NCBI GenBank assembly: GCA_046563655.1
Contig: CM102289.1
Location: forward strand, 6,262,001 to 6,326,000
Length of the DNA stretch: 64,000 nucleotides
DNA from: Yuukianura sp. NJ FZ-2021
Taxonomy: Eukaryota
Reading direction: 5' to 3'
The notes beneath the pieces are model-generated. The model was not told where the DNA came from. It saw only the letters and a list, made by a program, of their open reading frames with translations, and did no database searches. Below are positions 21,817-62,079 of the stretch, piece by piece. How positions within the stretch are numbered: the stretch's first letter is position 1; each line of letters begins with the position of its first letter. Position numbers and translations under genes: made by a program.

Positions 21817-22668
21817 AAAGACATTTGACAATTTTCAAGGTTTAAAAAACTAAAAAAAAAATTAGCAACTCTGTTAAAAATAAACTGCTCCATCTGCTTA
21901 ATTGAATTATGTATTGAGATTTTTGAAAGGAAAAAAAACATCTCTTGCTTTTTTTTTGTTAGTTAATCCACAACTTTTCATGGATTTCATGTACTACCTT
22001 GTATTGGTAAATCAAAATTAAATAAAATTCACTCTTGATTTTACTTCCAAAATTTTAAAACCTCTCAATTCAAGTTATACTGAAAAATGTTATGACTCGT
22101 CTACAGTTTTTGAAGTATTTTTGGACTATGGATCGTTCTAATCACTTCTGTTTGCAATAGAATATCACTTCAAAGTCACATTGTTCTGAAATACTCCAAA
22201 AGTTTCGAACTTCTTCGAATCTTCCATTATTGTGCTGTTAATCAGTTGAACAAGGACACTTTCAATTCTAGAAAGTTTTTTTTTCAACTACTGACACTAT
22301 TTCATCATCCAGAAACAAATTTTTGTTGGGCAGCACCCACAGGTCACCGCTTTTTATTAACAAGAACTCAAGAATTTTTTCCTAACTGAATGAGCAAAAA
22401 ACAGCCTGATTGAGTGGCATTTTAGTACTCAATACAATGTGTTTTTTTTTCACTAACCTTGTGACTAGGACACAACATAAGTTAGCATACTTTTGTCGTT
22501 ATCCATAGTTAGAGTGAACTGGACATATGAATTGCACACTGACTGACTGACTGAAGGTCAGTGACGATAGCAAATCATACGCTGTGCGTGACGACAAACA
22601 GAAAACTGAAATCCACTTTGCGGTTTGCAAGTAGTTGATTTTTGACACTTCTCCGTAGTTAACGCAAA

Positions 22669-24634: not shown

Positions 24635-25201
24635 CACCTAAACAAGAATAAAAACAAAACTAACCCATTACAATTTTAATTTGAGTAAAACAGCCAATTT
24701 TTAAAATTGAGTGTAACTCGTGGAATACCGTAATTTCAACGTATGTTTTAAATAAATATTGGTTTGAACAAAACTGAAAACGGTTACAACGAACAATCGG
24801 AGTGAAAAGTATATTTTATTTTTATATTTCGTCTATTTTATTTCATACATCTATTTTTTATACTTGCAACTTATTTGGTTCTATTTTTTTTCTTTCAATT
24901 TTGTATTACATGTTACCATAAAAGCATAAAAAAGTTCTTCACCGGTTACTTTTCATTGAACGCGCAATTAATAATAAAAGTTTCTGGGAAATAAAGTTCG
25001 ATGTTTTTACTTGCAAGTTTTACTATGATTTTATTATAATGTAGATTGCATGGAAAATCAATGAGCATCAAGACTAGCACCAAATTTTTAGTCAAAATCA
25101 AACAAAATCTCATGGGCTATTTTGTAAAGACATCGCTGTGAAATGATATGGTAAATACTCTACTCAAGCTTAACTCGAAATTTTGTTTATTTCATCTTAT
25201 A

Positions 25202-25402
25202 AGGTTATGTCAAAACTCTTGTTTTTAAATTTTCAAATTTTTTGAATCACACATCTGACGCGGCTCCGTTGCGTTAGCAATTCGGAATCAAAATTTTGAC
25301 TCAGCAACGTGAAATTTAAAAGAGTTTTGTGAAAATCAATAAAATTGGTACAAAAGTTGTTTTTTCTTGTTTTTTTTTTAAATCGGAGTTATGACATAAC
25401 CT
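25202..25402. mobile_element. Possible MITE-like insertion in the UGT1-UGT2 spacer
   Basis: Inverted repeats AGGTTATGTCAAAACTC / GAGTTATGACATAACCT (16/17 match). The surrounding ~280 bp is absent from the homologous UGT2-UGT3 spacer. Confidence 0.5.
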
Positions 25403-25689
25403 CTTACGCCATTTTAGTATAAATGGTCATTATAACAACCTTGGTTGAGCTCACTAGTGTGTTGAGCTCAAAAACTACGTGACCATTTTTGCACTTGTGA
25501 CAGAAACACTTCAAATTTTTTATTGACCTTGCGAACCAGTTATTCTAAACGGCTAAAGGTCATTTATGATGGAGATATCATTGTGTGCAGCAGAACCTAC
25601 AAAAATGAAGGCAGTGTCCTCTTCTACTTCACTCCAGTTTTGTAATTTGAAGTTCAGTTGATCTTTGGCACTTTGCCGTTAGTGTCAAA

Positions 25690-27738
25690 ATGTGGAACAA
25701 AAAATTGTTAGTGTTAATGTCCATCCTCTTGAGCGTTTTGCTGTCAATTCCTGACCATGCACAAAGTGCCAAAATCGTTAGTGTTAGTTTCTTTTCAGGT
25801 AAAAGTCACAAAATTACGTACGAGCGTCTCCTGGAAGAACTGGGAGCTAGAGGTCACAATGTCACAGTGCTTTCTCCAGTTCCTTCTAATAAACAAGTCA
25901 AAAATGTTAAACAAATTTTGACTTTGGACATGGAGAAAATGTTCCAGGAAAATCCAGGCACTTATCCCAATATGTTTGAAATGAAAGAACAAGGACAGCA
26001 CTTGAATCCGTTCATACTGTTGAACATGTTCGATCAACTTTGCAGCACAACCTATGACCTCCCACATGTCCAGGAAATTCTCAAAGAAAAGTTTGATCTA
26101 GTCATTGTCCCAGCTCTGTTTAATGAATGTGCGGCAGGATTTGTGTACAAATTGAACACTTCTATCATGCTGATCAGTCCGCTAAGCGCAAGTTCATGGA
26201 TGACAAGGTTCACTGGCGGGTCAAGTCCGCCATCGTTTGTACCCAACATTTTCACCCCTTGTACTCACGAAATGACATTTTATGAACGAACGATCAACTT
26301 CCTCACAGAGGTCTTCACGACACTCACCTACGATTACTACTACACTCCGTATATTTCAGAACTCTACCGAAACAAGCTCAATGACCCCAGCATTCCAAGT
26401 AGCTTCGATGTTCTCAAAAACTCAAGTCTTTTGCTATCCAATGGCCATTTTGCACTTGATTCACCAAAGCCTTATCTTCCAGACATTATAGAAGTTGCCG
26501 GCATGCACTGTGTTCCGGCACAAAAGTTACCTGAGGTAAGTTAGAAATTTTACAAATGCTTTTTCTTTTCTTTTTTGAAATTTTACTTTCAAAAATTTCC
26601 TTACTTTTTGAAATGTAAATCAAGATAACAAACCGGCTTTTAAAAAAAATCAAAGTTAACATCAAATTGAAAAACTTCTTTATGACTGTTTCCAGGATCT
26701 TGAGAAGTTTATTAATGGAACTGGTGAACATGGTTTCATTTACTTTAGCATGGGTACAGCTATTCGAGGGTCAACACTGCCAGAGAAAAAGCGAAAAATG
26801 TTTTTGGCGGCATTTTCAAAAATGAAACAACGAGTTTTGTGGAAGTGGGAAACGGAGACAATGGACGATTTACCGCCGAATGTAAAACTGAGCAAGTGGT
26901 TACCGCAACAAGATCTTTTGGGCCATCCCAAACTACGGTAGACTTCGAACTTTAATTGTTATTTGAATTCAATTTTTGATTTATATATTTTAATTTTTTT
27001 TATAGTGTGTTTATTACACATGGTGGATTTGGGAGTACCACAGAATCTGTTTACCACGGGAGTCCGCTCATTGGAATCCCAATTTTCGCAGACCAAAACC
27101 TCAATATGCAACGAGCGCAAGACAAAGGCTTTGCATATGTGCTTGATTTTAATACACTTACAGAAGAGAAAATTGTTTTGGCTCTCAACACTGTCATCGG
27201 CGACCCCAAGTAAGATTTAACATTAAACAAATGAGTTCAGCCTGGATTAGAACTATGGTTACTTTTGTTTCTCAAAAAGATTTTGAAATATTTTTAGGTA
27301 CAGAGAGAATGCGCATGCTCTGTCGAAAATTTTCCGTGATCAACCTCAAGCAGCTTTAGATCGAGCTGTATTCTGGACGGAGTATGTTATACGTCATAAA
27401 GGTAACAGAAAGTAGAAAGTTAATACATATTGAGTTTTGTTTGAAGATGTTTTGTTGTTCCGTATTTTTGGTTTTTATTGAGTTTATTCTATTGATTGAA
27501 CATTCTTCACTGATTTCATTATTGCTTTTTTTAATTGTTAGGTGCAACCCACCTTCGGTCCGCTGCAAGGGATTTGAACTTTTTGCAGTACTATTCTCTG
27601 GACGTTATTGGTTTCTTGCTTGCAATTGTATTCACCGCCCTCTACATAGTTACCAAACTTATTTGCGTCATTTGGACCAAGTTATGTGGCAGAAGAAAAC
27701 AAAGTCCAAGTACAACCAAATCCAAAAAGAAGAATTAA
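25690..27738 (+). CDS. UDP-glycosyltransferase, copy 2
   Basis: Same 5-exon structure, UGT signature and KSKKKN* tail as copy 1. Confidence 0.95.
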
Positions 27739-28502
27739 CACCTAAACAAGAATAAAAACAAAACTAACCCATTGCAATTTTAATTTGAGTAAAACAACCT
27801 ATTCTTAAAATTCAGTGTAACTTGTGGAATTCCGTAATTTCAAAGTATGTTTTAAATAAATATTGGTTTGAACAAAACTTAAAACGGTTACCACAAATAA
27901 TCGAACTAAAAAGTATATTTTATTTTTATACTTTGTCTACTCAATTTCATAATTTTTTTTATACTTGCAACGTATTTGGTTATATTATTTTTTTCTCAAT
28001 TTTGCAATACAGGTTAACCTGAAAACATAAAGAAGTTGTTCGTCGGTTACTTTTCATTGAACGCGCAATTAATAATAAAAGTTATTGGCAAATACAATTC
28101 GATGTTTTTACTTACAAATTTTACTGTGATTTTATTATAATGTAGATTGCATGGAAAATCGATAAGCGTCAAGATTAACACCAAATTAGTCAATAAAATT
28201 GCAAGGACTATTTTGTCAAGATAGCGTTGTGAAATGATATAGTAAATACTCTACTCAAGAGTTGTCTAGCGTGTTGAGCTCGAAAACTAGCGTGACCATT
28301 TTTGCACTTGTGACAAAAACACTTCAAATTTTTTATTGACCTTGCGAACCAGTTACACTAAACGACTAAAGGTCACTTACGATAGAGATATCATTGTGTG
28401 CAGGACCTACAAAAAATGAAGACAGTGTCCTCTTCTACTTCAGTCCAGTTTTGCAATTTGAAATTCAGTTGATCTTTGGCGCTTTACCGTTAAGTGTCCA
28501 AA

Positions 28503-30523
28503 ATGTGGAACAAAAAATTGTTAGTGTTAACGTCCATCCTGTTGAGCGTTTTGCTGTCAATTCCTGACAATGCACAAAGTGCCAACATCCTATGTGTAAG
28601 CTTTTTTTCAAGTAAAAGTCACAAAATTACGTACGAGCGTCTCCTGCAGGAACTGGGTGCTAGAGGTCACAATGTCACAGTGCTTTCTCCAATACCTTCT
28701 AACAAACAGGTCAAAAATGTTAAACAAATTTTGACTTTGGACATGGAGAAAATGTTCCACGAGAATCCAGACACAATGCCCAATATGTTTGAAATGAAAG
28801 AACAAGGACAGAACATGAATCCGTCCATACTGTTGAACATGTTCGATCAAATTTGCGGAGCAACCTATGACCTGCCACATGTCCAGGAAATTTTAAAAGA
28901 AAAGTTTGACCTAGTCATTGTTCCTGCTCTGTTTAATGAATGTACGGCTGGATTTATCCACAAATTGAACACTTCTATTGTGATGATTAGTCCGGCAAGC
29001 GCAAGTTCGTGGATGGCAAGGTTCACTGGCGGGTCAAGTCCACCGTCTTTTGTACCCAACATTTTTACACCATGTACTCATGAAATGACATTTTACCAAC
29101 GAACGTTCAACTTTGTCACTGAGGTCCTCACGACACTGGTCTACGATTACTACTACACTCCGTATATTTCAGAACTTTACCGAAACAAGCTCAATGACCC
29201 CAGCATTCCAAGTAGTTTCGATGTTCTGAAAAACTCAAGTCTTTTGCTATCCAATGGACATTTTGCACTTGGTTCACCAAAGCCTTATCTTCCAGACATT
29301 ATAGAAGTAGCCGGCATGCACTGTGTTCCGGCACAAAAGTTACCTGAGGTATGTTCGAAAAAAAATCTTAAAAACTTACTCTTTGAAATTCTATTTTCTT
29401 ATTTGAATTTCTAAAAAAATTCAAAATTATACCAAATTCAAAATCTTCTTATGATTGCAGGATCTTGAGAAGTTTATTAATGGAACTGGTGAACATGGTT
29501 TCATTTACTTTAGCATGGGCTCTGCTATTCGAGGATCAACACTGCCAGAGAAAAAGCGAAAAATGTTTTTGGCGGCATTTTCAAAAATGAAACAACGAGT
29601 TTTGTGGAAGTGGGAAACGGAAACAATGGACGACTTACCGCCAAATGTAAAACTGAGCAAGTGGTTGCCACAACAGGATCTTTTGGGGCATCCCAAACTA
29701 CGGTAGAGTTCGAATTTTAATTGTTATTTAAATTAAATTTTTGATTTATATATTTTAATTTTTTTATAGTGTGTTTATTACACATGGTGGATTTGGAAGT
29801 ACCACAGAATCAGTTTACCATGGAGCTCCGCTCATTGGTATCCCAATGTTCGCAGACCAAGACCTCAATATGCAACGGGCGCAAGACAAAGGCTTTGCAT
29901 ATGTGCTTGATTTTAATACACTTACAGAAGAAAAACTTGTTTTGGCTCTCAATACTGTCATCGGCGACCCCAAGTAAGATTTAACATATTAAACAAATGA
30001 GTTCAGCCTAGATTACAAATAAATCTATAGTACTTTTGTTTCTCAAAAAGATTTTGAAATATTTTTAGGTACAGAGAGAATGTGCGTGCTCTGTCTAAAA
30101 TTTTCCGTGATCAACCTGAGGCAGCTCTAGATCGAGCTGTGTTCTGGACTGAATATGTTATACGTCACAAAGGTAAATGTAAAATACAAATCTGTGCGCA
30201 TTTCGAGTTGTGTTTTTTTTTTTACAAAATGATGTTTCATCTATCGGTATTTTTCGCTTCTAATTAGTTTATTACCTTGGTTTTAACTCTACATAGACTT
30301 AATTATTGTTTTTTTTTAATTATTAGGTGCAACCCACCTTCGGTCCGCTGCAAGGGATTTGAACTTCGCACAGTACTACTCCTTAGATGTTATTGGTTTC
30401 TTACTTGCAATATTATTTACCACGCTCTACATAATTTCTAAAATACTTTGCTTCATTTGTGCCAAATTGTGTGGAAGGAAAAACCAAACCCCACATGCTA
30501 CAAAATCCAAGAAGAAAAATTAA
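28503..30523 (+). CDS. UDP-glycosyltransferase, copy 3
   Basis: ATG at 28503; same exon structure, signature and KSKKKN* tail. Confidence 0.95.
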
Positions 30524-37676: not shown

Positions 37677-39491
37677 TTACTTGTATTCCACAGTTTTAAT
37701 AACGCGTCCTGTTTCAACGACTTCAACATCTTTGGTTACGCGTTCACCACCAACTATTTCAACCGTTCGAGTATGCGTAGTCGTCGAGTCGCCAGGGATG
37801 ACATGCACTTCCTTCGTCACCGTTGAAGTTGTTGGCGGAACCACGACATACTTGATCGTAATCTTACCCAAACGTCGCACGGTTTCTTCCAAATGAATCA
37901 ACCAAATTTCACGTTGGCGTATAGCTTCAACCTTGTCCGTAGCCTCCAACGACTTAAGCCAAGCTTCTTTTTCCTTCTTTTCCAGCTCCAGTTTCTCAAC
38001 TTGTTCCTTGACAACTTTCTCTTTCAGTTCAATTTCCCGCTCCTTTTTGTCGTATTCCTTAAGTTCAAGTTCAAGTCTAGCTTTGTCAGCTCGCGCCTTG
38101 TCAAGTTCAGCAGCATCGCCGCTTGTTTGAATAATGATAAGAATGCGAGTCAATTCCGATTGAACCCTGTCACGACCACTGATCCATTCTCCACGATCTT
38201 TCAAACTTTGCTCACGCCGTTCAAGCTCCAGCAGTGCAATTCGTTTTTCACGCTCAGCAATTTCGCGCTCTCGCTGTGCCCATTGTAGTTCCAGTTTTTT
38301 GCTTTGTTCAAGTTCGAGTTGGGCAAGACGCGCTTGCAATTCGGCGAGTTGGCGATCTTTCTCGTTAAGATCTTTTTCACGTTTGTCGCGTTCCAAACGT
38401 TCCCGCTCCAAGCGCTCCAGCTCAATTCTTTCTCGCTCGATACGCTCAGCTTCCAGGCGATCATGTTCAATACGATCACGTTCAACGCGCTCTCGCTCAG
38501 TCCTTTCATACTCAATTCGTTCACGTTCAATACGTTCTCTCTCGGCAACTGCTTTGGGATTGGTCAAAGAGTCAAACCATTCAGCATCTGCGCAAACGCT
38601 TGAGCTCCTGAAATGTAGAAACAAGCTAAGTTAGAGCGATATAAGCGCCATGTAGTGTTTACTTATCTAGTAAAATTTTACACTTCTTGGAAGCTCCATT
38701 TCTGTTCAGGTCCCCCAGTACGGGCAGCTACAGACAAATCCTTGTCGTTTCTAAAATTTCAAATTAACAAAATCATGTTTTCAAATCTTTAGAAGAAACG
38801 AATTTGTTTCAAAAAGTTTATTTTTCAAAAGAAAAACTTTTAACCCGTTAAATTGCAGATAACCACCATCTTTGTTTCGGACGTAACAAAGGTAGAAGTT
38901 GGATTCACAAGGCTCCAATGCCCAAAGTTGGTTGTTACATCCACCAAACGGCTTGATAAAAGTAATATAAATTGTATTCAATCTTTTGTTTTTTAAACTT
39001 TTTTTGTAATTCCTGTCTTATGCTTCAAACTTACCCAAATTACAACTTCACCTTTCGTTGTCAGCGAGGCGTCTAAGCTTTTTCGTTCTGAACCCTGCGG
39101 TAAATTTCGTGGAGTGAATGAGTAGTAACCATCACCTAAAAATTTTGCCACACAGTAACACTTTGTTGAATTACTGAATTGCAAGTAAAATTTTATACTG
39201 AAGTTTTTTTTTATTGTTTAGTATGCTTCTGTACCTTCTTTTGTTGCAATCCATTTGGAATTAGTGCCGTTATTGTCATGATTCCAGGAAAGCACATGCG
39301 TTCCTTCGTTCGTATTACCACCCGCAACATTCCATGACTAGAACGGTTGGAGTGGGAAATGTTAAACATTTTGTGAAATGTTGAATAACAATTGATTTTG
39401 AAATCAAATATTACAATTGGTACGCTTTTAATACCTGATTCTTGAGGTAGGACATGACTTTATAAGTTTCTTTATGCACAACGTACGCCAT
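37677..39491 (-). CDS. Ricin-B-like lectin domain fused to a long charged helical/coiled-coil region, ~455 aa, 6 exons
   Basis: Exons 39491-39435, 39337-39235, 39135-39035, 38951-38845, 38750-38682, 38607-37677 are in phase. NSKW/NQLW/EQKW repeats followed by ERERI-type repeats. Confidence 0.82.
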
Positions 39492-42847: not shown

Positions 42848-44822
42848 ATGACTCTTCTTGAATTGAGTAAGTTAATTTCAGTTATCTTATCTTTAGAAGA
42901 GTAATTAGGTCAATGTGATTTCGTAATTTATTTTTGACTTATTAATTTAGAGCAATTTTTTTATGGAACTCCTTTCGGAAACTCGCGAAGCTCATTTAAT
43001 TGAGATAAAAATCTCAATTAACTCAGTTTTTTACGCTGATTACGAATCTGTAATTAGTTTTGGCCGCTCATAACCCTAACTTAACCTAACCTAACTTTAA
43101 CTAAAATGTGCCCCCATGTATGAGATAGGGAGAAGTGAGATGCCCAGAGCTGTTACCCTGAGAGAAAGTGAAATTCCCTATCTCTCCCATAGAACCTTCG
43201 CGAGTTTGCAGAAGATATACCTTTTTTATACACAGTGATAACATTGTTCCGGTTTGCTTCTGCTCCAGTTTTCATGCTCAGCAGGTTATCAACAAATGTC
43301 TTTGCCGCCGTGTACAGAATGATATTCAGAAGTGACCACAGGTCATCACTACCATCGTCCCAACCACGGAAGGCCTTGTCTTTGACCTCGTTATTAATTG
43401 GCACGCAATCTGGGAATGCCACTTCTGCGGTCGCGGGAGATGGACGTAGTCGTGATATCGAATCAAGCGCTAGCAATGACCATATTTCATCTGAGACAGA
43501 CAACCTTATCGGTGTTATTGTTGACGCCATAGACTCCGGGTCTGCAGTGGTGGCAGCTACAGCTGAGCAACATAATCTAATAGCAGACACGGCAAGGTAA
43601 TTTCATTTGAGTAACGTTGACAACCTAATTCCAGTTTCAAATTACGTGTTTGATTTTTGTCTGACACCCAAACTGTTTGCTATATTTTCAGAGGACCAAA
43701 ACATAGAAAACTAGAGGAACAGGAAGGGACAATGGCTGATAGCTGTAATAATGCCTCCGGTTCTTCCCTTAGCAAGGGCAGTACTTCCCGAACGCGACCG
43801 AACAAAAAGTACTCAAGCAACAGAAACGAATGGAAATCAAGTACGTCTCGACCGGAAACGGGAGGGAAACCAATAAGTACTCCGAGGATGAACCATTTTG
43901 TCGCTTTCAGAGTTTCAGATTCAGAGGTAAGTGGCTTACCATTTGTGACGCTGACAAAAAAAAAGAAATTCAGACATTTTGAAATAATTTCAGGTAATTG
44001 AAAATGTAGCAAACGTTCAGGACCAAATGATGGATACCTCAGTTGAAGTCCAAAAGCGCAAAAGACTAGAAGTATCACCTGGAGAAATATTTAGGGACAG
44101 TGTGATACCGACGACAAAGTTACATTTTACTCTACACGTCATGGAACTTAAGAACGACGACCAAATACAACAGTAATTTAGCTAAAATGGGACTTACCAA
44201 ACTGAAAATCAATGAATCATGTAACATGATTCTTTGACTAAAAATTAGAGCAATAATGGCGGTACAGCGTGCTTGGGAGTCGTGTCAAGAAGATTTTCTG
44301 CGCAATCCAATTAAAGCCCGCATCGAAGGACTTGATCACTTCACTGACACTGTAATACATTCCTCCTCAATACTATTCTCAATTTTTGAATTCTATTTTG
44401 CACATTTGTCTTACATTTTAACAGGTTTTGTTTGCCAAGATGCAAGGAGATGACACAATTGCCAGGATGACAGATTTGGCTAATCGGATACGAGAGGAAT
44501 TTGAACTGCTAGAAATCCCCGGTGAAAGTTGGCCATTTAATCCACACATGACGATCGCTAAAATTCAAAAGTCAAAGACGCTTCGCAATTTGGTAAACAA
44601 TGATGTAACGTTTTTTAACTGCATTGCACCGAAATAGTACGAATCATGACTTATACTGCCACGAATCTTGTGCAGGGAATTCGATCTTATCCGCGTGAAC
44701 TGTGGAAACATTCGGAGTTTGTACATTTTGGATACCAAAGGATGGAAGGAATTCAACTTTTGTCAATGATGGGAAAGGATCCTTCAGGCTACTACCCGGT
44801 CGTCGCTGATTATGAATTATGA
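42848..44822 (+). CDS. AKAP7-like 2H phosphoesterase (2',5'-phosphodiesterase fold)
   Basis: NHFVAFRV, KLHFTLHVM, FNPHMTIAK (two HxT motifs), FG.Q....IQLLSM...D..GYY. Upstream exons 42848-42866 and 43236-43596 splice in frame; start less certain. Confidence 0.82.
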
Positions 44823-45035: not shown

Positions 45036-45472
45036 TTAGTTGTGGCAGATGCAGGAGTCGCAGTAGGGCAAATAGCACGTACCTGAGATCCAAAAGTAAA
45101 AATTAGTCTTATGAATGTAACATTTTATCATGGCAATTTTATGAAAAATTGGTCTTACAATAAGAATATGGTGGATAGTTGCATCCAAGATGAGAGCAAC
45201 TTCCTGGACACGGGAACCATTGCAGGAGCAGAGCATCCTTTACGACTGCTTGCGAAACAGCATTGTTTGCCACCTTACCATCTTTCCCTCCTAAAAACAC
45301 AATTTCAGCAGAGTTAGCAATTTGGTAAACAACTTTTCAAAATATATTATTCGTGCTGGTTTGAATTTTAAATCTTACCGCTGCTAGTGCTGGTTCCAGC
45401 CATAGGAGTTTTTGCCGCGACGACAGTGAAAAGAAGAGCGACAGCGACGATAATGATTGTTTGCTTGAACAT
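45036..45472 (-). CDS. Secreted 90-aa prepropeptide with an 8-Cys C-terminal domain
   Basis: Exons 45472-45379, 45290-45159, 45082-45036 total 273 nt: MFKQTIIIVAVALLFTVVAAKTPMAGTSTSSGGKDGKVANNAVSQAVVKDALLLQWFPCPGSCSHLGCNYPPYSYCTCYLPYCDSCICHN*. Confidence 0.85.
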
Positions 45473-46298
45473 TTTGAAATTGAGAATTTTCAAAAGATTT
45501 TTCAAAAAAAAATTGTTTTTTTTTAGCCTGTGGAGCTTAGTTGTAATTTCAGGGTTCGTGAAAGTTTGAAAGCTTATTCGAACTGTGAATTTTCAAAAAA
45601 TATTGAGGGGATTTTATAGGTCTCCGGTGTTTACTTAAAACGTTTAATCATTTACTTAGTAATCACAAAAATCGTCAAATGTTTAACAAGAAATGAAGAT
45701 TTCGATGACAATAACACAACGATTCGGAGCTAACACTTGAATTTCGAATTTCCAAACAAGATAACATAGTTGCCGGAAATTTAATTGATTTGATCTAAAT
45801 CATATTCATCGCAATTGTGTTGTGATGATGATACAATTGATCGGAGCATGTCTCATGAAATTTTCATCAGCAGCAATTGAATCATTACGTTTTTTTTTCG
45901 GAATTTTTAACAAAAATATTTCCGACGAATTTTGTTAGTGAGATAAAGTGTTTCACTTTTCGCAGAAGTTTGGAGTTTCAACAAAGTAAAGTCCAATGCC
46001 CTCAAAATCAATCGACCTCGGCGTAATTTACTTCACGAAGTTTTCATAACTCATTAAATTAAATATTTTATAGAAACTAAATTAAAGTTATTCATACTAA
46101 AATAGACATAGTAAAAATTTTGTAGCGCAACTATAATGGAAGTGGCTGCTTAATGAGAGAACACTTCGAGAGAAACTGAAGAAGAAAAAAGAGAGAAAAG
46201 AAAAAAAGAAAAACTGATTTTCTTTTTTCTTTAGTTAATTGTCGTTTTCAACAAGTTTTTGCTTTGTTTGCGTCTTTTTTCAAAAATTTATTTTTGTC

Positions 46299-49200
46299 TC
46301 AGTTTTGTATAATCGAAGCTAAATATCTGTCACGAATTAGACTCAATGAAATTGCTTGTATCGGCGGAAAAGCATTTGTTTGATTTTGAAATGCAGTCAG
46401 AGACAATGAAGCTACTGAAAGGTACTTGCCGTACCGTTTGACCAAAAAACGAATTACTCCCAAATTTCCAAAAAATCGAGCAACCGAATTACTATAAAAT
46501 TTTTTGACTAAATTTTGATCAAGAATTTGAAGTCCATGAAATTCCCATTCCAGCGGCAAAATCGACTCCTTGTATGCCATTTTAATTTCCTTCAATCTCT
46601 TGAGCATGGGTTTGAGTGGATGTGATTTTGGGAGGTGGGAAATGAATTGATCTCGAACACTTCGGTACGAATTTTGCAATTCTAGCATAGTCGAGTCAAA
46701 TAGGTACGTCGTAGCGTCGTCTGGTTTGAGTCGTATACTGCTTACGTTTCCAAATAGGCGGCTCAGAGTATTTTTTGAATTTGTAGTAACGAACCGCCCA
46801 AAATTTTGAAACGGAACAACTGCCGCCGCTAATTTTCCATTGACAAATTCATATATAAATCCAAACGTCAAGTTTCCCACTTTTTCTTTGTCTAATACAA
46901 GAGTTAAGTTTTGTGTACTGAAGGTGTAGCGACGTCCATTTCCAATGACCTCGGAGTTGAGCAAGGTCATTGACCTCAGTGACCTGCAATGTTGAACAGA
47001 GTCACTTAAAATCCTTGGCGTTACTTCAACGTCTTCAAGAACAATTGATTTAAGATCCTTTTGAATTTCGGAATGAATGCCAGCGAAGTTAGTTTTTGTG
47101 TCAGAGTGCGAGTGCTGCAGAAATTCTTGTCCTTTGAAAACGTAATTTTTCGAATTGAAAGCTTCCCGCTCAAACGTTTTTAGACGAATTTTGGTTTGGT
47201 AGTCTTCTAGTGACGTCCAAAAATAACTCCCGCCAGAACATGCGTAATGTGCTTGCCCAAGATCATTTTGTGACGCTTCATTCCATTTCCAACTGGAGGG
47301 TTTGTTTTCTCCTTGTCGAAATAGTCGTAAACCGCGTAAATTCTTTAGTACATTTGTATCTGGAACAACTTTTTCTAAATTTCGAAAATTTGAAAATTTG
47401 CCGCCAGTGACGGGCTCAATAACGACGGATTTTAAGGAAGGAATTTGAAGAAGTAAATCGATATTGACTTTCTGATTGGTTCGAAGCATTAGAGCAGAAA
47501 TGTTCGGAAAAATTTCGTCAAAGGTAATCCAAATTTCAGAATCCAGTGAACAGGAAATGCAGCAAAGCGATTTCAAATTTTGAAATAACGGAAGGTTTTG
47601 GCCGTTCGAAAATGGTAGGAAGTTTCTTCTGTTTGAAATTTGTTCATCCGGAAAAATAATGCGAGAATGATGAGGCTCAATTGCTATTGCTGCTGCAAAT
47701 GTGACGTGAAAACCACGTCCGAGACTTAAGTACTCAAGAGATTTTGGAAAATTTTCCAGTATAAGCTTGTTCGACTCTTGTTTTGGAAATTTTAAATTTT
47801 TCAAAACAAGGTGTTTCAATTTTGGAAATTTCAAAATAGCTGAAGAAACTTCGTAATCTGACGTATTGACGTTGGTCAGATTAACTTTGTCCAAAATGAG
47901 TGACGTCAGCGTTTGCGCCGATGGTGAAATTAAAGAAGTTTGAAGACTTGAACGATGAAGTGCTAAGCGCCGAAGTTTGAATTCACTTTCTCCTGCCTTT
48001 TGCAAGAGTTTATCCGCAAAATGAAGTTGATTCATAAAAATGTCTCCGCGAGTGAAGTTTAGGTGCAGCAGTCTAAAAATGTTCACTTTAAGGTCAATGT
48101 CCGTTTTCATCGACAGTAAATCATCAAACGACCAATCACGGTTGCTGTAGTCCTTGTAGAAGAACAAATACGATTTGACACTTGATTCCGAAAGGTCGCC
48201 AGGAAAAGTTCGAAGGTCATTGACCTCAAAATCTGGCTGAGGAAGATCAAGTTCAAATTGATTCAAAAGTGGTAAAGCCGATTTTTGGCTAATCGGCTGG
48301 TCAAAAACGGCTTGTGTGATGTGAATGGAGTTTAGTGTTTTGGCATACTCGAGAGACGTGAAGAGGTCATCGACCTGGATGTAGACAAACCCAAGGTCAA
48401 GTCGGGTCACTCGATTTTCCCACTCCAAAGGTAGTCCCTGGTATACTTCATACTGAACTTCGTTTCCGTAGAGGAAGTATGGGTATGGAACATTTTGTAC
48501 AAATTCAAATCCAATTTGTCCACTAATTTCTTCCAGAACATCACGAATCCAAAATACAAATGGATAAATTCTTGTAAACACTGCAAAATTTTGACAAATT
48601 CCTTTCCGGGCATCGGAGTCACTTGAACTCACTATACCCTAAAAATCAAAATGAAATCAGTGGTTGGAATCTTCAAAAACGAAACTGGTTTGTGAAATTT
48701 TTGTTTAAAAAGTTATTACATGCACGTAATATTTTTCTTGTACTGGGGACAAAAAGATCATCCCATTGCCAGAGTCTCCATTACACACGGTTTGAAATAC
48801 TTCTCCTGATACCCAAACTCATTTCAAAAATTGTTTTTCAAATTCAAAATTTTGAAATTTGGAGATTTTTTCTACATACCTTGCTTACTGCCAGCACAGA
48901 ACTGAGACTCTGACAGAACGCGATGTAGTGAATTGTAGCACTCTAAACCGGACTTGACATTCAAGTTAATCTGACGAAGTGAGTCAGGGACGGTGCCATT
49001 TTCTGTTAGCCCGAACCCAGTGATCTTCATTTCAAACGTTAATAGAAAATGTTAAGTACTAAGATTTAGCTTACGCTATTAATTTCAAAAAGGTCTTTAC
49101 ACGTCCTCTAACTCCATTCCGAATGACGCCTACATCGGCGCTGTAGTCGTTCGGTAAACAAATCGGTGCGATATAGTCGTTGTACTCAATGGTTCCTGCT

Positions 49201-50230
49201 AACTGAAGCAAAGCAATGTCCGCTTGGTAGCCATTTTTTGGATCGTAGTTTTCCGAAATGTAGTGGCGATGTACCTGCAAAGGAAACATTTTTAAAAAAT
49301 TGTGCAATTAGTTTTATTAAAATAATTTATAATAATAAAATAAGTAATATTTTATCCAGTTTATTTACGGCAAAAATTTGTGACCCAGTAACTGCTGAAT
49401 TTTTGGAGAAAATCGTGCTAACTCCGCCCAGAATCACGCGATACCTCTCAGGCCCTGCTACGATACCTGCACGCCAATCATGTACTTAATAACAACTTTA
49501 CTCGAAAGTTAATTATAATCAAGTAATTGTGATTAAACTTTCATCACAAATAATTATGGAGGTAGGAGTTACAATGTGCGGCTGTTAGCACAACTTGACT
49601 TCTGATTATTGACCCTCCACATAAATATGTCCACTGGTTTTTGTCATTGGATACAAACAGCATAGCGTGCCATGGATTCAGTGATCTGTACGTTGGCACT
49701 CCATTAATGACTAGAGGTTTTACGTTTCCCTCAACGTTGCCACAGTCTATACGAATTAAACATTTTAGGTGCCAGGCAACTAACTGATTTAGCTTCAAAT
49801 TAATTTTTACATAGTTAATTAACTTATTTAATTTACCTTCTTTACATCTGTAGGCCATAAACCTAGCCTTTCCAGTCCACGCTCCATTTGCTCCACATCG
49901 TAGAGCCAATTCCTGATTAACATTTCTCGTTTGAAAGTCAAACGGCGTGTAGAACTTTTTACATTTGTATGCAGCGGTAGTTCCGGGTTCTTGTGCTAAA
50001 CTGCAATCCGTTGAGTTAGTACTGTTGAGCCCTGATCCAGAGCATGCCACTTCAACATTCTAGGATTAATTGAATATATGTTAATGAATTAATTGTAAAT
50101 GACTTAAGTATTGTCTTACAGCATTTGGATTCAATGGATCACACTTGCGGCTTTGCAAAGCTCCAGATCCAAAAGTCAACAAGGTCAAAATGGTAATCAC
50201 TGCCACAAGATTGTGAAAACTGAAAAACAT
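46299..50230 (-). CDS. Signal peptide-Sushi-like-S1A serine protease (ModSP-like) fused to a ~740-aa LRR-like extension
   Basis: 8 exons. CG..PL|VING activation site, LTAAHC, ADIALLQL, CNGDSGNG. The last exon from 48638 (GIVS..VFTRIYPFVFWI) reads on without a stop to 46299, with LxxLxL repeats. Confidence 0.82.
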
Positions 50231-50755: not shown

Positions 50756-51885
50756 CTATTCAGTGCAGAGCTTGCATGTACATTGGAAGTGATAGTAAGC
50801 TTGAAGGAAATGTTGACGAACGGTGACCGACGTGGAGTCATGGTCTTGAATCACATAGCAAATGGTGATTGGTTCGTTTGGTTCGATGAGACGTTTGGCG
50901 CGAATTTCCAGGGATAACACTGTTTTCTTGACCCCATCTTCAACCATCTCCTTTTCAACACTTATGTAATCACAGTTTGGATTGCAGTCATGAGTTATGA
51001 AACATCCCTTTTCACAAAACATATACATATACCTGAAAGACATTTAGAAAAGTTTTTTCTCAATTGCATGTTATGTTCGGCCTTATTTTTGCGAAATGTC
51101 TGAGCTCTGCATCACCTTGGAAGGTCCGGGTATGACCAAAAAGTGTTGATTTCTAAACAGTCCCGAACATGCTCAATTCTGTCAGAGTCGTATTCTGTCA
51201 AATTGCATTTTTCTCTAAGAAATGCCGTAACGAATTGCAATTCTTGACTGTGGACTGAACAACTTCTGCGATACTCACGATGACTTTCCAAGTTTTGAAA
51301 ATAGTTCCATAAGCTTGGATTTTTTTTCATGAAAAGCAATGTGCGCAAAACAACAATTGCCGTGTAGTGGCCCAGTGTCACGGTTTCTGGATGAACTCCA
51401 TTTTGACCAAAAATTGGACACTCTCCATTCGAATGCCAGACATCCTTAAAAATACAGAAAATGAGCTATTATCATATCTCACTACTTTAAAAAAGATTAA
51501 TTAAAAAGAAAAAAGATTATTATTAAATTTTTTAAAATACATTTTCACATGTTTGGTCACAGACAGGCCAGTGACATTTGGAACACGTTGTACAATCTTG
51601 AAGAGGTTTTCCACAAGAGACACAAATTATCAATGCTGCGCAGTCGTGAGCTGCATGTTCATTCCACGGCACGTAACCTGAATTTGGCACGCCTAAAGGA
51701 CTGATAATTAACGGAACGTCGTCCAGAATCAATTCGCCTTCCGGGATGGTCCGAGATGCTGCCATGTACTTTCCATAAACTTCATTATGTAGAATAGTGA
51801 CTGCTGGTAGCCATTGCACTCCGATTGTCGGAAGAGTTATAGGGCTCAATACTGCTGAACCCATAGCTTCTGTGTCCATTTTCAT
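50756..51885 (-). CDS. SMYD/msta-like SET-MYND protein, copy 1 (ends right after post-SET)
   Basis: YGKYMAASRTIPEGELI, CVSC..CSKCHWPVC, THDCNPN, EPITICY, FQCTCKLC; 3 exons. Confidence 0.88.
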
Positions 51886-52540
51886 TCCAGACTTCCAATG
51901 ACGGAGTAAAACTACAACTAAAGCCTAATATACAAATTAAACTTTGGTACAGCATCGTTAAGTAAAGTCAAAGAGTGTGTATCAGTAACTTTCAGTAACG
52001 CTTGGGCAAAGTTCAGACTGATTGTGTCATTAGTGTATCAAACCAAACGGCGGTGCGTGTGGTGTTGCTATTTATCAGTAGCTCTCAAAGCCTTCTTCTA
52101 TGGTAAACCTAAAGATGCTGATAGACGTGTCAACTCGTACCAGCCGAGACATAATCAAAGGTCACAGGTCAAGCAACTTTTGTGACAGCCAAGTCAAAAG
52201 CGGAACAAAAAAAAGAAGAAGTAACGTTGAATTTTATTCAGCCATGTACATATAGTGCACATGAAACTTCAAATTACCCAACTACAATAATTCCTTGCAT
52301 ATACCCCGAAGTCCAAGTGAGGTTTTTCCAGCTCGAGACAAAATTGGAGAAATAATTTTAATCAAAACGTTTACATTTAGGTCGGAAATTATTCAAGAAC
52401 AACAAGCAAGTGTTCATTTGCTTCGAAGTGCTGGGTATGTGCGAAGTCGGGCTATAAGCAAGGATTCAGGGTGGTTCAAAGGTAGTTAACTACGACACTA
52501 TAATAGTTGTTTGTATTGTACTCAAGTTTTTTTTTTGTTT

Positions 52541-53661
52541 TCATTCAACACTTTTGAGCTCATCGCTGCACCGCTGGCATGTACATTTGAAATGGAAGTA
52601 CTCTTGAAGAAACCGTTGGCGCTGGAAAACCGGCTTCCCGACATTGTTTCTAACAACATAGCAAATGGTGATAGGTTCGTTGGGTTCAATAATTCTTGTG
52701 GCGCGAAATTGAACAGTCCACACTTTTCTCTTGACCCCATCGACAATCAATTCGTTTTTGACGCCGCTTATGTAGTCGCAGTTTGGATTACAGTCATGGA
52801 TTACAAGACTTCCTCTCAAACAGAACATCCACATATACCTGGGAAGATTACAAAAAAAGAATTGGAAAAAAATTTAGCTAACTAATGTAATGCAAATCAA
52901 CTTCTGCTCTGACTCACCATGAATGGTCAGCCTGTGACCAATAGGAATTGACTGCCACACAGTCTCGAATACGTTCAATTTTCTCTGGATCATAGTCTAC
53001 CAACTTACATTTTTCTCTAATAAAGTCCGTAATGAATTCCAGTTCTTCACTGTGAACAGAAAGATTTCGTCGACAAGCACTCTGACTTTCCATATTTTGA
53101 AGAATATTCCAAATTGCTGGATTCTTGTCAATGGCAAACAAAATCCGCAAAACAACAATCGCATTGTAGCGCCCCACCGTCAATTTTTCTGGCAAAACTC
53201 CATTTTGAGCAAAAATGGGACACTCTCCGTTTGAATGCAAGTGATCCTTAGAAACACAAGGAATGAGTTATTACAATTGAAAAATTTTAAGTATTACTAT
53301 GTAATTCAGTTGATTTTATTTTTACATTCTCGCATGTTTGGTCACAGACCGGCCAGCGACATTTGGAGCACGATGTAGGTCCTTGAAGTGGCTTTCCACA
53401 TGAGACACAAATTAGCAAAGCTGCGCAGTCGTGAAATGCGTGTTCGTACCAAGGCAAGTCATCTGAACTGGGAGTACCGTAAGGACCGTAGCCCAGCGGA
53501 AGTTCGTCCAGAATCACTTCACCTTCCTGTATGGTCCTAGATGCAGCCATATAGTTTCCATAAATGTCGTTGTGCAAAATAGTGGCTGCTGGTAGCCACT
53601 GTACTCCTGGTTTGGGAACAATCTCGGAATAAAGTATCGAATTGTTGGTTTCTGTGTCCAT
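52541..53661 (-). CDS. SMYD/msta-like SET-MYND protein, copy 2
   Basis: Same 3-exon layout; IHDCNPN, EPITICY, FKCTCQRC. Confidence 0.88.
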
Positions 53662-54417
53662 TTTTGTAGAAATTTGCAACCACAGACTGGAATTTAAGTT
53701 GAAATTAATATTTGAATTAACTTTGGTCCAACGCTAAGAAGTTAAGTTCACAGTTATGCATAAAGTGTGACAGAGCTGTTGCATAACACAATGCTTACTA
53801 AACTAAAAGATCCACGCATTTTAGATTATAAAATGGCAAGTTAGTTGCGGTTATGAAATTATCCGCTTTAAAAGTTTTATTTCTTTTGCCAACGTGGCTG
53901 AGCTGCTATGCGTCTGTGACAAAAAAGTCGCATGATAAACGAACAAAACCAGAACCGCAATTACGAAAAACTTTGAACATGAAAATGAACTTAATCACTT
54001 AGGAAGTTTCCGAGGTCTCTGAAGATTACACGGTATTGAAAAGTAATAAAAGAATATGTTCAAACCCCAGCAGGTCTCAATTACATGTTGTAATGCCCGA
54101 CTTCAGTTCGTAAAAATTCAAATCGTAAATCGAAATGAAAATCTACCCCTCATTATTTTCATTGGTAATAACTCATTGTAAATTCTAAAGAAACGACTAC
54201 GTAAAAACTTTCGTTATCAAGGCGCAGGTTTTTAGAATCTGTTATTTTCGTTTATTGAGTAAAACCAGAAAAATAGAATAATTAAGTGACAGGGAAAGGG
54301 AATACGAGATTTAAACAATGTGTTTCATAACACTTAAAAGTATGTTTTATAAAAGTAATCAAGTTACTACATGTATTAATTTCTGAAGTACAATTTGAAA
54401 CCCAGTTTGGCGGTTTG

Positions 54418-55536
54418 TCAGTTATACCCGTTCAAGTTTTCGTCAATGCCTTTCAGCTCAGTTCTACATCGATTACATTGACATTGAAAGTAAAAATAAG
54501 TTTTAAGATATTGTTGGCGCTCAGAAACGGACATGGAGCCATGGCATATGGGAATGTATGATATTGTTATTGGTTCATAAGGGTCAATGACCCTGGTGGC
54601 GTGAATTTGTAAAACGATGACCTTTTGCTTGACCCCGTCCAAAATCACTTCTTGTTCAACAAATTTTTTGCTAGAGTTTGGTTCACAGTCATGAGCAAAA
54701 AGGCTTGCCTTGTCAAACACGACTGAAATGTACCTGAATTTAGAACACAAAAAATAATAAAGTTTTTAGTTTAATAAAAATTTTGTTGAAGTTATATAAT
54801 TTTTGTAGGTTAGGATACTTCGCCTCACCTTCCAATATAAGGGTACACCCAGTAACTATTGATGATGAGGGTACCCATGATTTGATCAATTGCATTGCGT
54901 TTGTACTCTGTCAACTGACATGTTTTCCGTAGAAAATTTGTAACAAAATCCAATTCACGAAGGTCTACTGAAGAGTTGTGTCGACGCTCATGATGATCTT
55001 CCATGTTTTGAAAAATGATTACATCCTCTGAATGTTTGGCGCAAATCAAAAAAGTACGCAGTACGTAAATGGCACTGTAATGTGACAAAGTCAACTGTTC
55101 CGGAAGTAGCACTTGCCGTTTAGCAAAAACGAGACATTCCGCTTTTGAATGCAATGGATCCTGAAAACAGCGAAATTTAAAAGATTGTTAAAAATGCAAA
55201 GTATATACTAGTACTTACATTTTCACAAATTTTGTCGCAGACTGGCCATTTACACTTGCTGCAAACTGCTTCTGCGTCAATGTGCTTTCCGCAGGAAAGA
55301 CAAATTGGCAATACATCATGTGACTCCGCTTCATTCCAAAATGGCTTGCATGGACTATCAGTTCCACTTGCACAGGAAATCAATGGAATTTCCTCCAGCA
55401 CAAGTTCATCTTTTTCGATTCTTCTGGAAGCAGCCATGTAGTTTCCAAAAATTGAATTTTTGAGAACAATAGTTGCTGGCTGCAACTTTTGTCCATTTTT
55501 GGAAGCAGGAGACGAATGTGTTGTAACCTCCATCAT
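54418..55536 (-). CDS. SMYD/msta-like SET-MYND protein, copy 3
   Basis: AHDCEPN, EPITISY, FQCQCNRC. Confidence 0.88.
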
Positions 55537-56905
55537 GTTCCTGACACTGGCCTTCACCAAACTAAATTGTTTGTTCTCTGTTTTGAAAAAATATTCAAAC
55601 ACAAAATAGATTAAGGTTTAGTTTTTACTAGTTTAGGTTAGAATGGGATAAGTTAGTGTGAAAATATTTCTGGTGGGAAATACAAATATTAAGAACGTAG
55701 GAGGTGATATGGGCAAAATTATTTGACCAAAAAGTGAAAAGGTCAAACGTTACAAATACTAGGTTACATTTTGGTTAAGCAAGATTTTCTTATGTTGTTA
55801 GTACTTTTTGACCTTTTCACTTTGTCACCCAATTGTTTCTCACCGTATTACATGGCAATATTAAAAATGCCACAACCCATAAACGAAAAGGAAATATAAT
55901 ATGAACTTGAGTCATAGGACGCTTGCAGGTAACGAAACGAAAATTATGTAAAGCAATATGTAATCCTATAAACTCACCAGTAGACGATATTGAATTAGGA
56001 ATTGATTTGCAATTACGGGATTAATTGTGACTCCAAGCAATTGAATACCATCGAAACTGAAAGTTCATATGAACACAGAGATTTTATAGGCACAAGTAAA
56101 AAAAAATGACCCCCTCCCCCTCCTTTGGTAGAAAACTTGACTGTTAAAAGTTGAAAATGCTAAATGACGCTGTCTAGAGTGAAAATCGATGTTATTGAAC
56201 AGGACTTTTTCGTCCTTTTTTCTTGTTAATCACAAGAAAATTACACGTGCCCAAGCCCATGTCCTTTGAAGTTTGAAACGTTTATGCTTGATGTCAAAAA
56301 AACTGCACGTAGCAAGCAACAAAATAAAACGTGCGTCATAAGTTTGCAGACCGCAAATGACTTGTCTGCATTTAAAAATTTACATTATACTACTACAGGA
56401 CAGAATTATTATTATTTTGTTTTCATTCAAATCAAGTTCCCGTTTGATGTAATTCTCAGTTTGCTGATTTTCCATTCAATGCGCGTCATTTTAGAGAAAA
56501 TTTTGTAAGTTGAAAACCTGTTTGTGTACGAATTTGCCGTCACCAATTGACGGTTTAAATTTGGTAAGGTTTGTTTTTAAAAACAAATTTGAATTTTGAT
56601 TTTATTCAGGCGGTACCAGTTGGAAAATTTGTTTGCCTTTTTTTAAAAAAAAAAACATACTTTTATAGAATAGTTGAATTCAATTCAAAGTTGAAACAGC
56701 AAGTATTTATAGAAAAACCTTAAGAACTATGAACATTCTGGAGCCAAATTTTACTTGTGTTTTATTGACAAATTTTTGAAACTTGAATAATTAGATTGAA
56801 AATTTTTCGAGTATGGAAAATCCATTCCTTTTAAAGTTTAAGCTAACATTTGACCTTTAGATAATTTTGTCATTATCTTTGCCCGAGTCTGTACACTTTT
56901 AGCTT

Positions 56906-59400: not shown

Positions 59401-60554
59401 ATGACTTGCATTAAGTACTTGCTGATTTTACTTGTCTTTCTACATCCAGGAAGTGCAGCCAAAACGAAAAAAAGTTCAATACCAACCAGTACATCACTTT
59501 ATCCCTGGAAATATAGAAAAGGAGAATGTCAAAATAAAACTGTTACGCTTGACGTTGGCTATGAAGTTCCAGTAAGGTAAACTGAGGTCATTGACCTTTC
59601 ACAAATACGTTAAATGATCTTTGACCTCATTTTAACCTTTAATTTGTAGAGCAGCAGTTGCATTTCTGGGAAGTGGGAACAAATGGTTTCGAGAACTGGT
59701 TGAAGATGTGACAGGTCACATAATTGCTCCTGAAGTTGGCCAATTGAAACGACATCATCGACGAGTGAAACTCTCAGTTAAATGCAGTATTCCGAATTCC
59801 CGCATTCTTTTATACGGATCACACGATGTTGGATTCCATTTAGTAAAGTCAGGAGTCAAACCAAAGTGCTGGAGAAAAGCACTTGGTGACAATACTTTAG
59901 GGCTGGACACATTGTCCGAAAAAGTTTTCCAATTTCGTGGAATTCTGTTAATTCGAAATCCTTGGGAAAGTATTTTTTCAGTATGGCAGCACATGAGACT
60001 CAATCACTACTTGCTGCCGAAATCAATTGAACATCCATCCGATCTTGTTCCTGAAGGTATGATGTTGAAACTAAAGAAAATATTTGCCACTGATTAATTT
60101 TTTTGAATGCTGAGCAGAATATGTCGAGTTTTTCAAAAATGCTGCCAAGTCTTGGCGCGATGTTGCATTTCGTTGGATTGAAGGAACACCAAGTACAAAG
60201 GATTTGCTAATAGTAAAATACGAAGATCTAAAGGTCAATGCTACCAAGGAAATTATCCGCTCTCTGGACTACTTGGACCTTGAATTCAACGAAGACAGGA
60301 AAACCCGTTTGCGATGTGCAACTGCCCAGCCATTGACACAGTACAAAAGAAACACGTCATCAGAAATTTTCGAAAAACTGGACACAATTTTGGATCAAAA
60401 TACAAATTTATCTGAGCTATTGGAGGTGTACATTAAGGAAATCAATTCGAGTTTGGAAAGAAGAGGATTTTCTGAAAGACTTGACTACAGTCGACCAAAA
60501 TTTTCTAAGAAAATCGAAAAAGAAAATTTTGATTCGGAAAAACAAAAGAATTAA
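59401..60554 (+). CDS. WSCD-family-like sulfotransferase (3 exons, N-terminal signal/anchor)
   Basis: AFLGSGNKWFRELVEDVTG (cf. FPGSGNTW 5'-PSB), LLIRNPWESIFS (3'-PB), LIVKYEDLK, RLRC. Confidence 0.78.
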
Positions 60555-60839: not shown

Positions 60840-62079
60840 TCAAGTTGTGCCATGCACTGGCTCGGGAAATGGTGGATTTTTCGAAAGCATCATTATTTCA
60901 AAATACTTTCCAGCAGTCACCGCCGCGGTGTTCAATAATTGCTGTTCAGCCATGTTTCTAATGAGGTGAATCTTCACGTCAGCGTCAGGATGAAGAAAGT
61001 ATGCAAGAGACTGTCGTCCCCCAGATTCTTCCGGAAAGTGCTTCACACGGTGGACCTTAACAATTGACCTTTGACCTTTCATCTCACTAAGCTTTGTTAA
61101 CATTAGGTACACAGTGACCAAAATAACCTGAAATCAAATTACATCTTACCGTGGCCAAATATTTTCCGTGAGTCAGGGATTCTAGCATGTCTCCGACATT
61201 GACGAAAATAGCACCTTCGATTGGCTCGACGTCCAGCCATTCTCCATTTTGGTCTGGTAACTTATTTTTTTGAAATTTTCAAATAAGTTCAATTAGTCAA
61301 CTTTTTTGTACACACGTTTTTAAAGATTGCAAAAAAACCTGAACTTGAAGTCCGCGAGCCGTGGAGAAGAGGAATGTGAGCGTTGACATATCGGTGTGCC
61401 GTTCCATGATTAAGTCGGGGTTCAGCGATTCATTGGCGCCAATTCCTGAAACTTCCTGGTAAAAAATTGAGCTCATGTGAGTCTTTGACGGAATTTGGAC
61501 CTGCCCAAGAAGAGCTGATTGGTGATCCTGGATTAACTGGAATTCATTATTCAGTTGCAAACTGTTGGCGATTCTAGTGAGTAAGAATCTTCCGAGTGAC
61601 GTCATCTCATGGTCAAATCGGCTCACGCAGGAAGTGATTCCTGGCAAATCTGCTTCTGGAAATATTCCAGAATTGTCATCGGACATTCCGACTTTGAAGT
61701 CAAATCGTTCACGAAACGATTCTTTGACAGATCTTGAGTAACCACAAAGATCAATTCCTTTTCTCCCGCCCTTTTTGTAGACAAGCTTTCTTTCCTCAGG
61801 TAAACCAAAAAACGTCTTAGATTTTTCAAAGAAGCTGGAAATCTGTAAAAATTTGTCGCCAAAATTTTAGAAATTTGACTGAAATTTACTTAACACAATT
61901 ACTCGAACGATACTCACAGTAGTTTCTGCTACTCCATGACCTACTAGATAGAAACAAGTGTGGGATCGAAGCCCTTCGTCGATTTGTTGAGTGACCTGTC
62001 TAATCACGTCAGCATCAGATGACCTCCCCTGCAAATTAATTATCGGAAACCCATTTATGGAAGTTGTGGGATAAACCAT
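60840..62079 (-). CDS. 2-oxoglutarate/Fe(II) dioxygenase of the IPNS-like superfamily
   Basis: FPIINL, FYLVGHGV, HTDMSTLTFLF, WLDVEP.EGAIFVNVGDML, VHRV, RQSLAYFLHP (HxD..H and RxS intact). Confidence 0.9.

Follow-up and report, generated by a model that had tools for sequence, protein, structure and literature searches.

A predicted S1A protease joined in frame to a leucine-rich repeat solenoid in Yuukianura sp. NJ FZ-2021

Results

Gene model

We analysed a stretch of 64,000 nucleotides (hereafter the window) from Yuukianura sp. NJ FZ-2021 (assembly GCA_046563655.1, contig CM102289.1, positions 6,262,001 to 6,326,000 of the forward strand). The locus at 46299..50230 of this window is very probably a single fused gene, predicted to encode a secreted serine protease of the S1A family followed by a leucine-rich repeat (LRR) region. 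On the minus strand, from the ATG at 50230 down to 46299, eight exons join into one reading frame of 1,116 amino acids (aa), with GT-AG borders and phase kept at every exon (Table 1).

The stop-to-stop frame at the 3′ end of the gene, 46299..48638 on the minus strand, spans 779 codons and opens with the last S1A strands and the C-terminal helix. A tail of 742 residues shares this exon of 2,340 nt with the final protease strands, while exons 1–7 measure 86–223 nt. At a GC content of about 37%, a frame of 779 codons is vanishingly unlikely to occur by chance (we estimate about 0.07 stops per codon). The initial annotation of this DNA, made from sequence alone, had taken its 777-aa open reading frame (ORF) to be the terminal exon of a signal–Sushi-like–protease gene of about 1,120 aa, with a tail that is intronless, unlike the rest; the eight-exon model and the exon lengths bear out both statements. 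A scan for bacterial promoters and terminators near the 3′ end of the gene, which is not applicable to a eukaryote, returned nothing.

Table 1. Parts of the predicted protease–LRR gene, with positions in the window.
Feature	Position	Strand	Evidence or remark
Exon 1: ATG and 37-aa hydrophobic signal-like N-terminus	50120..50230	-	GT donor, in phase with exon 2; signal read from sequence
Exon 2: Cys-rich Sushi/CCP-like module	49837..50059	-	Pfam Sushi sub-threshold
Exon 3: linker Cys113, predicted activation bond Leu123–Val124 (KPL↓VING), catalytic His169	49573..49746	-	Pfam Trypsin 31.2 bits
Exon 4: protease	49369..49466	-	71% identical to L001 4552-4653
Exon 5: protease, catalytic Asp221	49101..49274	-	Pfam Trypsin 31.4 bits
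Exon 6: protease	48880..49024	-	Pfam Trypsin 16.8 bits
Exon 7: protease, S1 Thr314, Cys316, catalytic Ser320 (GDSGNG)	48720..48805	-	Sequence read
Exon 8, start: last protease strands and C-terminal helix, including Cys352	48528..48638	-	Conserved in 10 sequences
Exon 8, tail residues 1 to about 421: predicted LRR solenoid	47265..48527	-	AlphaFold2, Foldseek, VIA
Exon 8, tail residues about 422 to 742: few LRR-like turns, then beta-sheet and helical domain	46302..47264	-	AlphaFold2; no recognised fold
Stop codon TGA	46299..46301	-	Sole stop of the gene model
AATAAA, likely polyadenylation signal	46287..46292	-	Starts 7 nt past the stop; read from sequence

Conservation of the fusion

A metagenome contig of 7,941 bp, L001, carries the whole gene with its parts in the same order, and its counterpart also begins with a hydrophobic stretch. 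Identity to the window amounts to 38% in the signal/Sushi-like part, 58–71% in the protease exons and 50% over 775 aa of the tail exon. The exon borders agree, save that L001 has no intron between exons 6 and 7; since these are continuous there, the splice join of exons 6 and 7 in the window is independently confirmed. The last intron falls at the same codon boundary and in the same phase, and the L001 frame beyond it is open for 767 codons. Outside the gene, the L001 flank and the window have nothing in common, so there is no synteny.

A word search with the terminal-exon frame returned only three relatives, among them P0001, which starts with the protease end. A profile search over 1.84 billion representatives gave 44 matches at the cut-off of E ≤ 1e-3, and 23 of these remain at E ≤ 1e-10. 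The protease end is followed by the tail in all seven matches that reach the profile start (P0004, P0006, P0007, P0011, P0012, P0014 and P0022); the others start at later positions and represent fragments or a different architecture. An alignment of the junction in 10 sequences with 28–69% pairwise identity has no indel from the FTRV strand to ISGE, where the tail begins. An unbroken frame and a fixed linker across this range of identity are a strong argument for a single polypeptide. The initial annotation had proposed to look for the same fusion in related genomes; it was found as a whole gene in L001, in the seven profile matches and at the aligned junction, and, judged from these sequences, it is no assembly accident.

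Alignment A2 leaves out P0047 and P0048 (near-duplicates of P0007 and P0024) as well as P0037 and P0043. The last two, a bacterial Roc-COR LRR protein and a low-complexity sequence, were judged spurious profile matches.

The tail is seemingly split over two called ORFs on one contig in the case of P0014 with P0015 and of P0012 with P0019. An intronless tail is accordingly not universal, given this apparent split in at least two relatives. In P0006 (945 aa), the match to the window tail stops at profile position 551. Beyond it lies a longer, different C-terminal part, in which LRR-like motifs from the first half of P0006 itself seem to recur; what follows the solenoid hence varies within the family. 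The 64-kb window itself holds no paralog of the protease–LRR gene.

The protease domain

The Pfam Trypsin profile (PF00089) exceeds its cut-off of 20.6 bits on exon 3 (31.2 bits) and on exon 5 (31.4 bits) when each is scored by itself, and reaches 16.8 bits on exon 6, while exons 4 and 7 and the 37-aa protease end, each alone, gave no Pfam match. The protease exons of L001 score 34.9–41.9 bits. The catalytic triad is complete, with His169 in TAAHC, Asp221 in ADIALL and Ser320 in GDSGNG, and a Thr (Thr314, in TVCNGDS) stands six residues ahead of Ser320 as a non-Asp S1 residue; the intact triad, the S1 residue and the GDSGNG motif had all been listed in the initial annotation.

Cysteines 154/170, 289/303 and 316/352, together with linker cysteines 113/241, lie at the places expected for an S1A protease. 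We assign their disulfide pairings from the S1A family pattern, in which Cys316–Cys352 presumably corresponds to the pair 191–220 of chymotrypsin numbering. Because Cys316 on exon 7 would pair with Cys352 on exon 8, the protease is incomplete without the tail exon. By profile score, triad and cysteines alike, the predicted domain is a member of S1A. A PDB sequence search with the 79-aa protease exon of L001 gave 60 generic S1 matches, including kallikrein, trypsin, Grass, MASP-1 and thrombin, and no subfamily signal.

The activation motif is kept between the two genes (KPL↓VING in the window, EPL↓VING in L001), and the zymogen is predicted to be cut after Leu123. Thr314 stands where we would place Asp189, and Ser and Ala fall on what we assume to be positions 216 and 226. 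The S1 pocket is predicted to favour small or aliphatic residues.

The Sushi-like module and the comparison with ModSP

On exon 2, the Pfam Sushi profile gives E 0.075 and 13.9 bits against a cut-off of 20.7, and it gives 14.2 bits on the L001 counterpart; in both, the HRM profile scores much as Sushi does. Cys43, Cys70, Cys92, Cys109 and Trp99 match what we take to be the spacing of complement control protein (CCP) modules. LDLa repeats gave no Pfam match at E ≤ 1 on exons 1–2 or on the L001 exon, and just upstream of the L001 gene there is no LDLa-like frame. In the window, about 500 nt separate the ATG from the SET-domain exon of the neighbouring gene, which leaves no room upstream for LDLa repeats.

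According to PMC10732536, ModSP comprises four LDLa repeats, a CCP module and a serine protease domain, and it autoactivates with separate recognition proteins, namely PGRP-SA, GNBP1 and GNBP3. The same paper presents ModSP as the one chymoelastase-like enzyme of its cascade, with a preference for Leu at P1 (PMC10732536). Like ModSP, Manduca HP14 and Tenebrio MSP, the protein is predicted to be secreted, has no clip domain, carries a small Cys-rich module directly ahead of the S1A domain and has a non-trypsin S1 pocket; its P1 Leu fits the preference of ModSP (PMC10732536). It differs from them in that LDLa repeats are missing and the Sushi score is below threshold. The known proteins also stop at the catalytic domain, whereas 742 further residues follow here on the same exon, and they rely on separate recognition proteins (PGRP-SA, GNBP1, GNBP3).

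A Leu before the activation bond and a Thr in the S1 pocket make self-cleavage chemically plausible. The earlier label "ModSP-like" stands in these two respects; it fails for the LDLa repeats, which are absent. The Sushi module scores below its cut-off. The protein may work like ModSP, yet we do not file it as a member of that family.

The tail

AlphaFold2 modelled the 742-aa tail, from 46 aligned sequences, with a mean predicted local distance difference test score (pLDDT) of 87.0 and a predicted template modelling score (pTM) of 0.83, and placed only about nine disordered residues ahead of the start of the solenoid. Foldseek against the PDB returned 49 matches at E ≤ 1e-3; every listed one is an LRR-containing protein, internalin A, COI1, NLRC4, Roco and TIR1 among them. 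VIA, which is independent of Foldseek, returned 124 chains at Z ≥ 8; its rows all cover model residues 1 to about 420. The best were FBXL2 (6o60_C; Z 15.3, 302 aligned residues, model range 1–419) and FBXL17 (6w66_B; Z 14.6, 295 aligned). The ESM Atlas gave clusters of FBXL type for the tail, with scores of 0.88–0.92. In the model, then, tail residues 1 to about 420 form an LRR solenoid that is irregular and backed by helices.

The L001 tail matched no Pfam family, and the relatives of the tail are mostly sub-threshold for LRR, although P0023 reaches LRR_2 with 21.1 bits against 20.9. FBXL2 and FBXL17 are the best structural matches to residues 1–420; identity to them is 12–13%, and they are cytosolic, while the module here is preceded by either a signal peptide or an anchor in the membrane. 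Pfam found no F-box in the tail or in the 36 relatives scanned.

Conservation along the tail is lowest in mid-solenoid (33–42%, against 41–68% in the other segments). The C-terminal domain is conserved at 41–68% and the linker at 74%. The tail carries eight N-x-S/T sequons, and four of its cysteines are invariant in an alignment of four sequences.

The last 322 residues, folded alone by AlphaFold2 (pLDDT 76.7, pTM 0.76), form a few more LRR-like turns and then a beta-sheet and a helical bundle. For this region Foldseek returned no match at E ≤ 1e-3, VIA none of 48,161 chains at Z ≥ 5, and the ESM Atlas a best score of 0.81 to phage clusters of domains of unknown function, which is chance level. 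As modelled, the last 300 residues or so are not LRR and match no solved fold.

The LRR motifs that the initial annotation had quoted from the tail are all present in the translation. Its reading of about 740 aa as LRR-like holds for some 420 aa and a short further stretch, about 60% of the region, and fails for the last 300 or so. The concern it had raised, that the tail might not be a solenoid, does not apply to those 420 aa, modelled at pLDDT 87.

Origin of the LRR module

Four of the 44 profile matches (P0025, P0029, P0030 and P0046) consist of an N-terminal hydrophobic anchor and the first part of the module, without a protease. P0025 is CAG7681728.1 of the springtail Allacma fusca, annotated as uncharacterised. 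All four are related to the first 250–300 or so residues of the tail (E 8.6e-12 to 1e-3) and differ in having the anchor in place of the protease; their annotation, too, goes no further than uncharacterised. An extracellular location of the module fits these anchored relatives, the signal-like start of the fused protein, the eight sequons and the four invariant cysteines.

The existence of such stand-alone, membrane-anchored relatives makes the capture of an LRR gene, suggested earlier for this locus, plausible. The module was probably taken over from a springtail family of membrane-anchored LRR proteins, with the ectodomain captured as one exon.

Discussion

On the prevailing view, the protease cascades of arthropod immunity begin with a modular protease that is gathered by separate recognition proteins and then activates itself. 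S1A proteases normally end at the catalytic domain. Our best explanation of the locus, which as a whole we consider to have an even chance of being right, is a fused secreted protease with a built-in LRR binding module that activates itself.

The protein would be a secreted zymogen in which a signal peptide is followed by a single small Sushi-like module and by an S1A domain with all its catalytic residues. A short linker of invariant length joins the protease to the LRR solenoid of about 420 aa and to a domain of about 300 aa with an unrecognised fold. The zymogen would be cut after Leu123, and the enzyme could cut its own activation bond, like ModSP with its P1 Leu. The LRR and the C-terminal domain would stay on the catalytic chain after the cut. 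As a built-in binding module, the LRR would cluster zymogens on a microbial or host ligand, or dock a substrate, and such clustering or docking would set off or direct proteolysis. The step from there to a self-contained recognition and initiator protease is more tentative, and we would put it a little short of even. The variability of the mid-solenoid suits a variable binding surface and is no proof of one.

Several findings weigh against this explanation. LDLa repeats are absent and the Sushi score is sub-threshold in both the window and L001. A word search with the Sushi module and the first protease exon, confined to longer proteins, yielded 476 candidates and none at E ≤ 1e-3, which is weak evidence. 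Pfam recognises LRR in the window tail only below threshold (LRR_At5g56370, 12.8 bits against 27), and the nearest structural matches are intracellular F-box LRR proteins. None of the 44 profile matches is a full-length annotated protease–LRR protein from a named genome; those with the protease end are all metagenome or assembly ORFs. Finally, the S1 and activation-site assignments were made by residue numbering, not by structural alignment.

The main rival to the sensor reading is that the tail serves localisation or the choice of an endogenous substrate. The fusion would then be real, and the tail would anchor or localise the protease (at the cuticle, the matrix or a cell-surface partner) or provide an exosite for one endogenous substrate, in a role that is developmental, moulting-related or digestive and not immune. 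We see this as a possibility to be taken seriously, though on balance unlikely. LRR solenoids are general protein-binding scaffolds, and the best fold matches, FBXL2 and FBXL17, are substrate adaptors. The good conservation of the C-terminal domain and the linker is what a fixed partner would lead one to expect, and no immune gene adjoins the protease–LRR gene within the window. Against it stand the mid-solenoid, which is the most variable part of the tail, and the combination of Leu at P1 of the activation site with a residue other than Asp at S1, which is the pattern described for the initiator ModSP (PMC10732536). Neither of these two points is decisive.

It is quite improbable that the locus yields two products, with the usual mRNA ending or being spliced just past the protease or the tail being cut off after translation. 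Such an arrangement would agree with the general rule that S1A proteases end at the catalytic domain. Separate products would need neither a continuous frame nor a linker of fixed length, and both are kept in the 10 sequences aligned. Moreover, the gene model has its sole stop at 46299-46301, followed by AATAAA, and the AlphaFold2 model has just those nine or so disordered residues ahead of the solenoid. That the locus is a chimera of the assembly, or a protease pseudogene next to an open frame unrelated to it, would suit the lack of an annotated full-length counterpart and is extremely improbable. The arrangement recurs on an independent contig of a different organism, splice sites, catalytic residues and cysteines are all intact, and the 779-codon frame, conserved and folding at pLDDT 87, is coding.

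If we return to the self-activating protease with its own binding module, a bolder version of it can be put forward. The gene would belong to a family of sensor-initiator proteases made as one chain and found solely in springtails or nearby hexapods. In them, the ectodomain of a type-II membrane LRR receptor, captured as a single exon, would be rigidly joined to an autoactivating, ModSP-like chymoelastase. We hold this to be rather doubtful. If true, both the recognition of a microbial or damage ligand and the start of the Toll/phenoloxidase cascade would fall to one protein. It would replace the separate recognition proteins and the LDLa repeats of insects, and the family would also carry a C-terminal domain of unsolved fold.

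Other Sushi-containing S1A proteases that couple recognition to self-activation as initiators are horseshoe-crab Factor C and vertebrate MASP and C1r, and Factor C likewise has sensor and protease in one chain. Their recognition or adaptor modules (EGF, CUB, lectin, several Sushi) are N-terminal, in contrast to the tail described here. To our knowledge, none of the three has a C-terminal LRR. Mosquito LRIM1 and APL1 are secreted arthropod LRR solenoids of humoral immunity, and the APL1B LRR (4xgo_B) was matched by VIA with Z 12.2; the likeness is structural. They differ from the tail in being proteins of their own, which act together with TEP1 and are not known to be fused to a protease.

In the main full texts of the literature searched, we found no description of a protease–LRR fusion in springtails, of the present family or of its architecture, an S1A protease followed by LRR. 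This architecture adds to those of the modular S1A proteases, and the capture of a receptor ectodomain as one exon is a likely route to it. With a protease that is conserved and brings along a large LRR module, the idea that one chain both recognises and initiates can be put to a direct test, in a lineage of early-branching hexapods whose immunity has been little studied. Should the tail serve docking or localisation alone, it would still be an unusual way of aiming an S1A protease. The analysis also flags a well-predicted domain of about 300 aa that matches no solved fold.

Other genes in the window and on L001

Directly upstream of the protease gene, at 50756-55617 on the minus strand, three or more genes stand in tandem, each combining a Cys-rich exon of MYND-like type with an exon for a SET domain. 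The SET-domain exon at 50756-51043 has a Pfam SET match with E 5.9e-07; similar frames lie at 51532, 53287 and 55177, and likewise at 50756 and 52541. These genes may be of the arthropod SmydA type. Just downstream of the protease gene and on the same strand, a short frame at 45368-45592 has a signal-like start (MFKQTIIIVAVALLF...) and then a GT donor. A small protein destined for secretion may have its first exon here.

Upstream of the ortholog on L001, at 1788-2084 on the minus strand, we observed a frame of a fungalysin/thermolysin propeptide (FTP; Pfam E 3.1e-11). This suggests an M36-type metalloprotease gene next door, which is not syntenic with the window.

Three tandem, closely alike first exons of UDP-glycosyltransferases (UGTs) occupy 22663-29414 on the plus strand (frames at 22663, 25651 and 28494). 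The first of them matches Pfam UDPGT with E 1.3e-21, and its best named relative is a Folsomia candida UGT (47%). Taken with the Allacma fusca protein P0025, this match would suggest a springtail or something close to one as the source of the DNA. Two similar membrane-protein exons with a common C-terminal motif, at 5675-6268 and 9574-10104 on the minus strand, look like parts of duplicated transporter genes and have no Pfam match at E ≤ 1e-3. No Pfam match was obtained either for a 317-aa frame at 37677-38630 (minus strand), which consists mostly of Glu/Arg/Leu-rich repeats (ERIERERIE...) and is probably a coiled coil.

Two weak Pfam matches, both below cut-off, are a sulfotransferase exon at 59636-60554 on the plus strand (E 2.3e-04) and the N-terminal exon of a non-haem dioxygenase at 61297-61866 on the minus strand (E 4.8e-05). 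An exon resembling the AKAP7-type 2′-5′ RNA ligase is present at 44422-44637 on the plus strand (Pfam E 5.2e-06).

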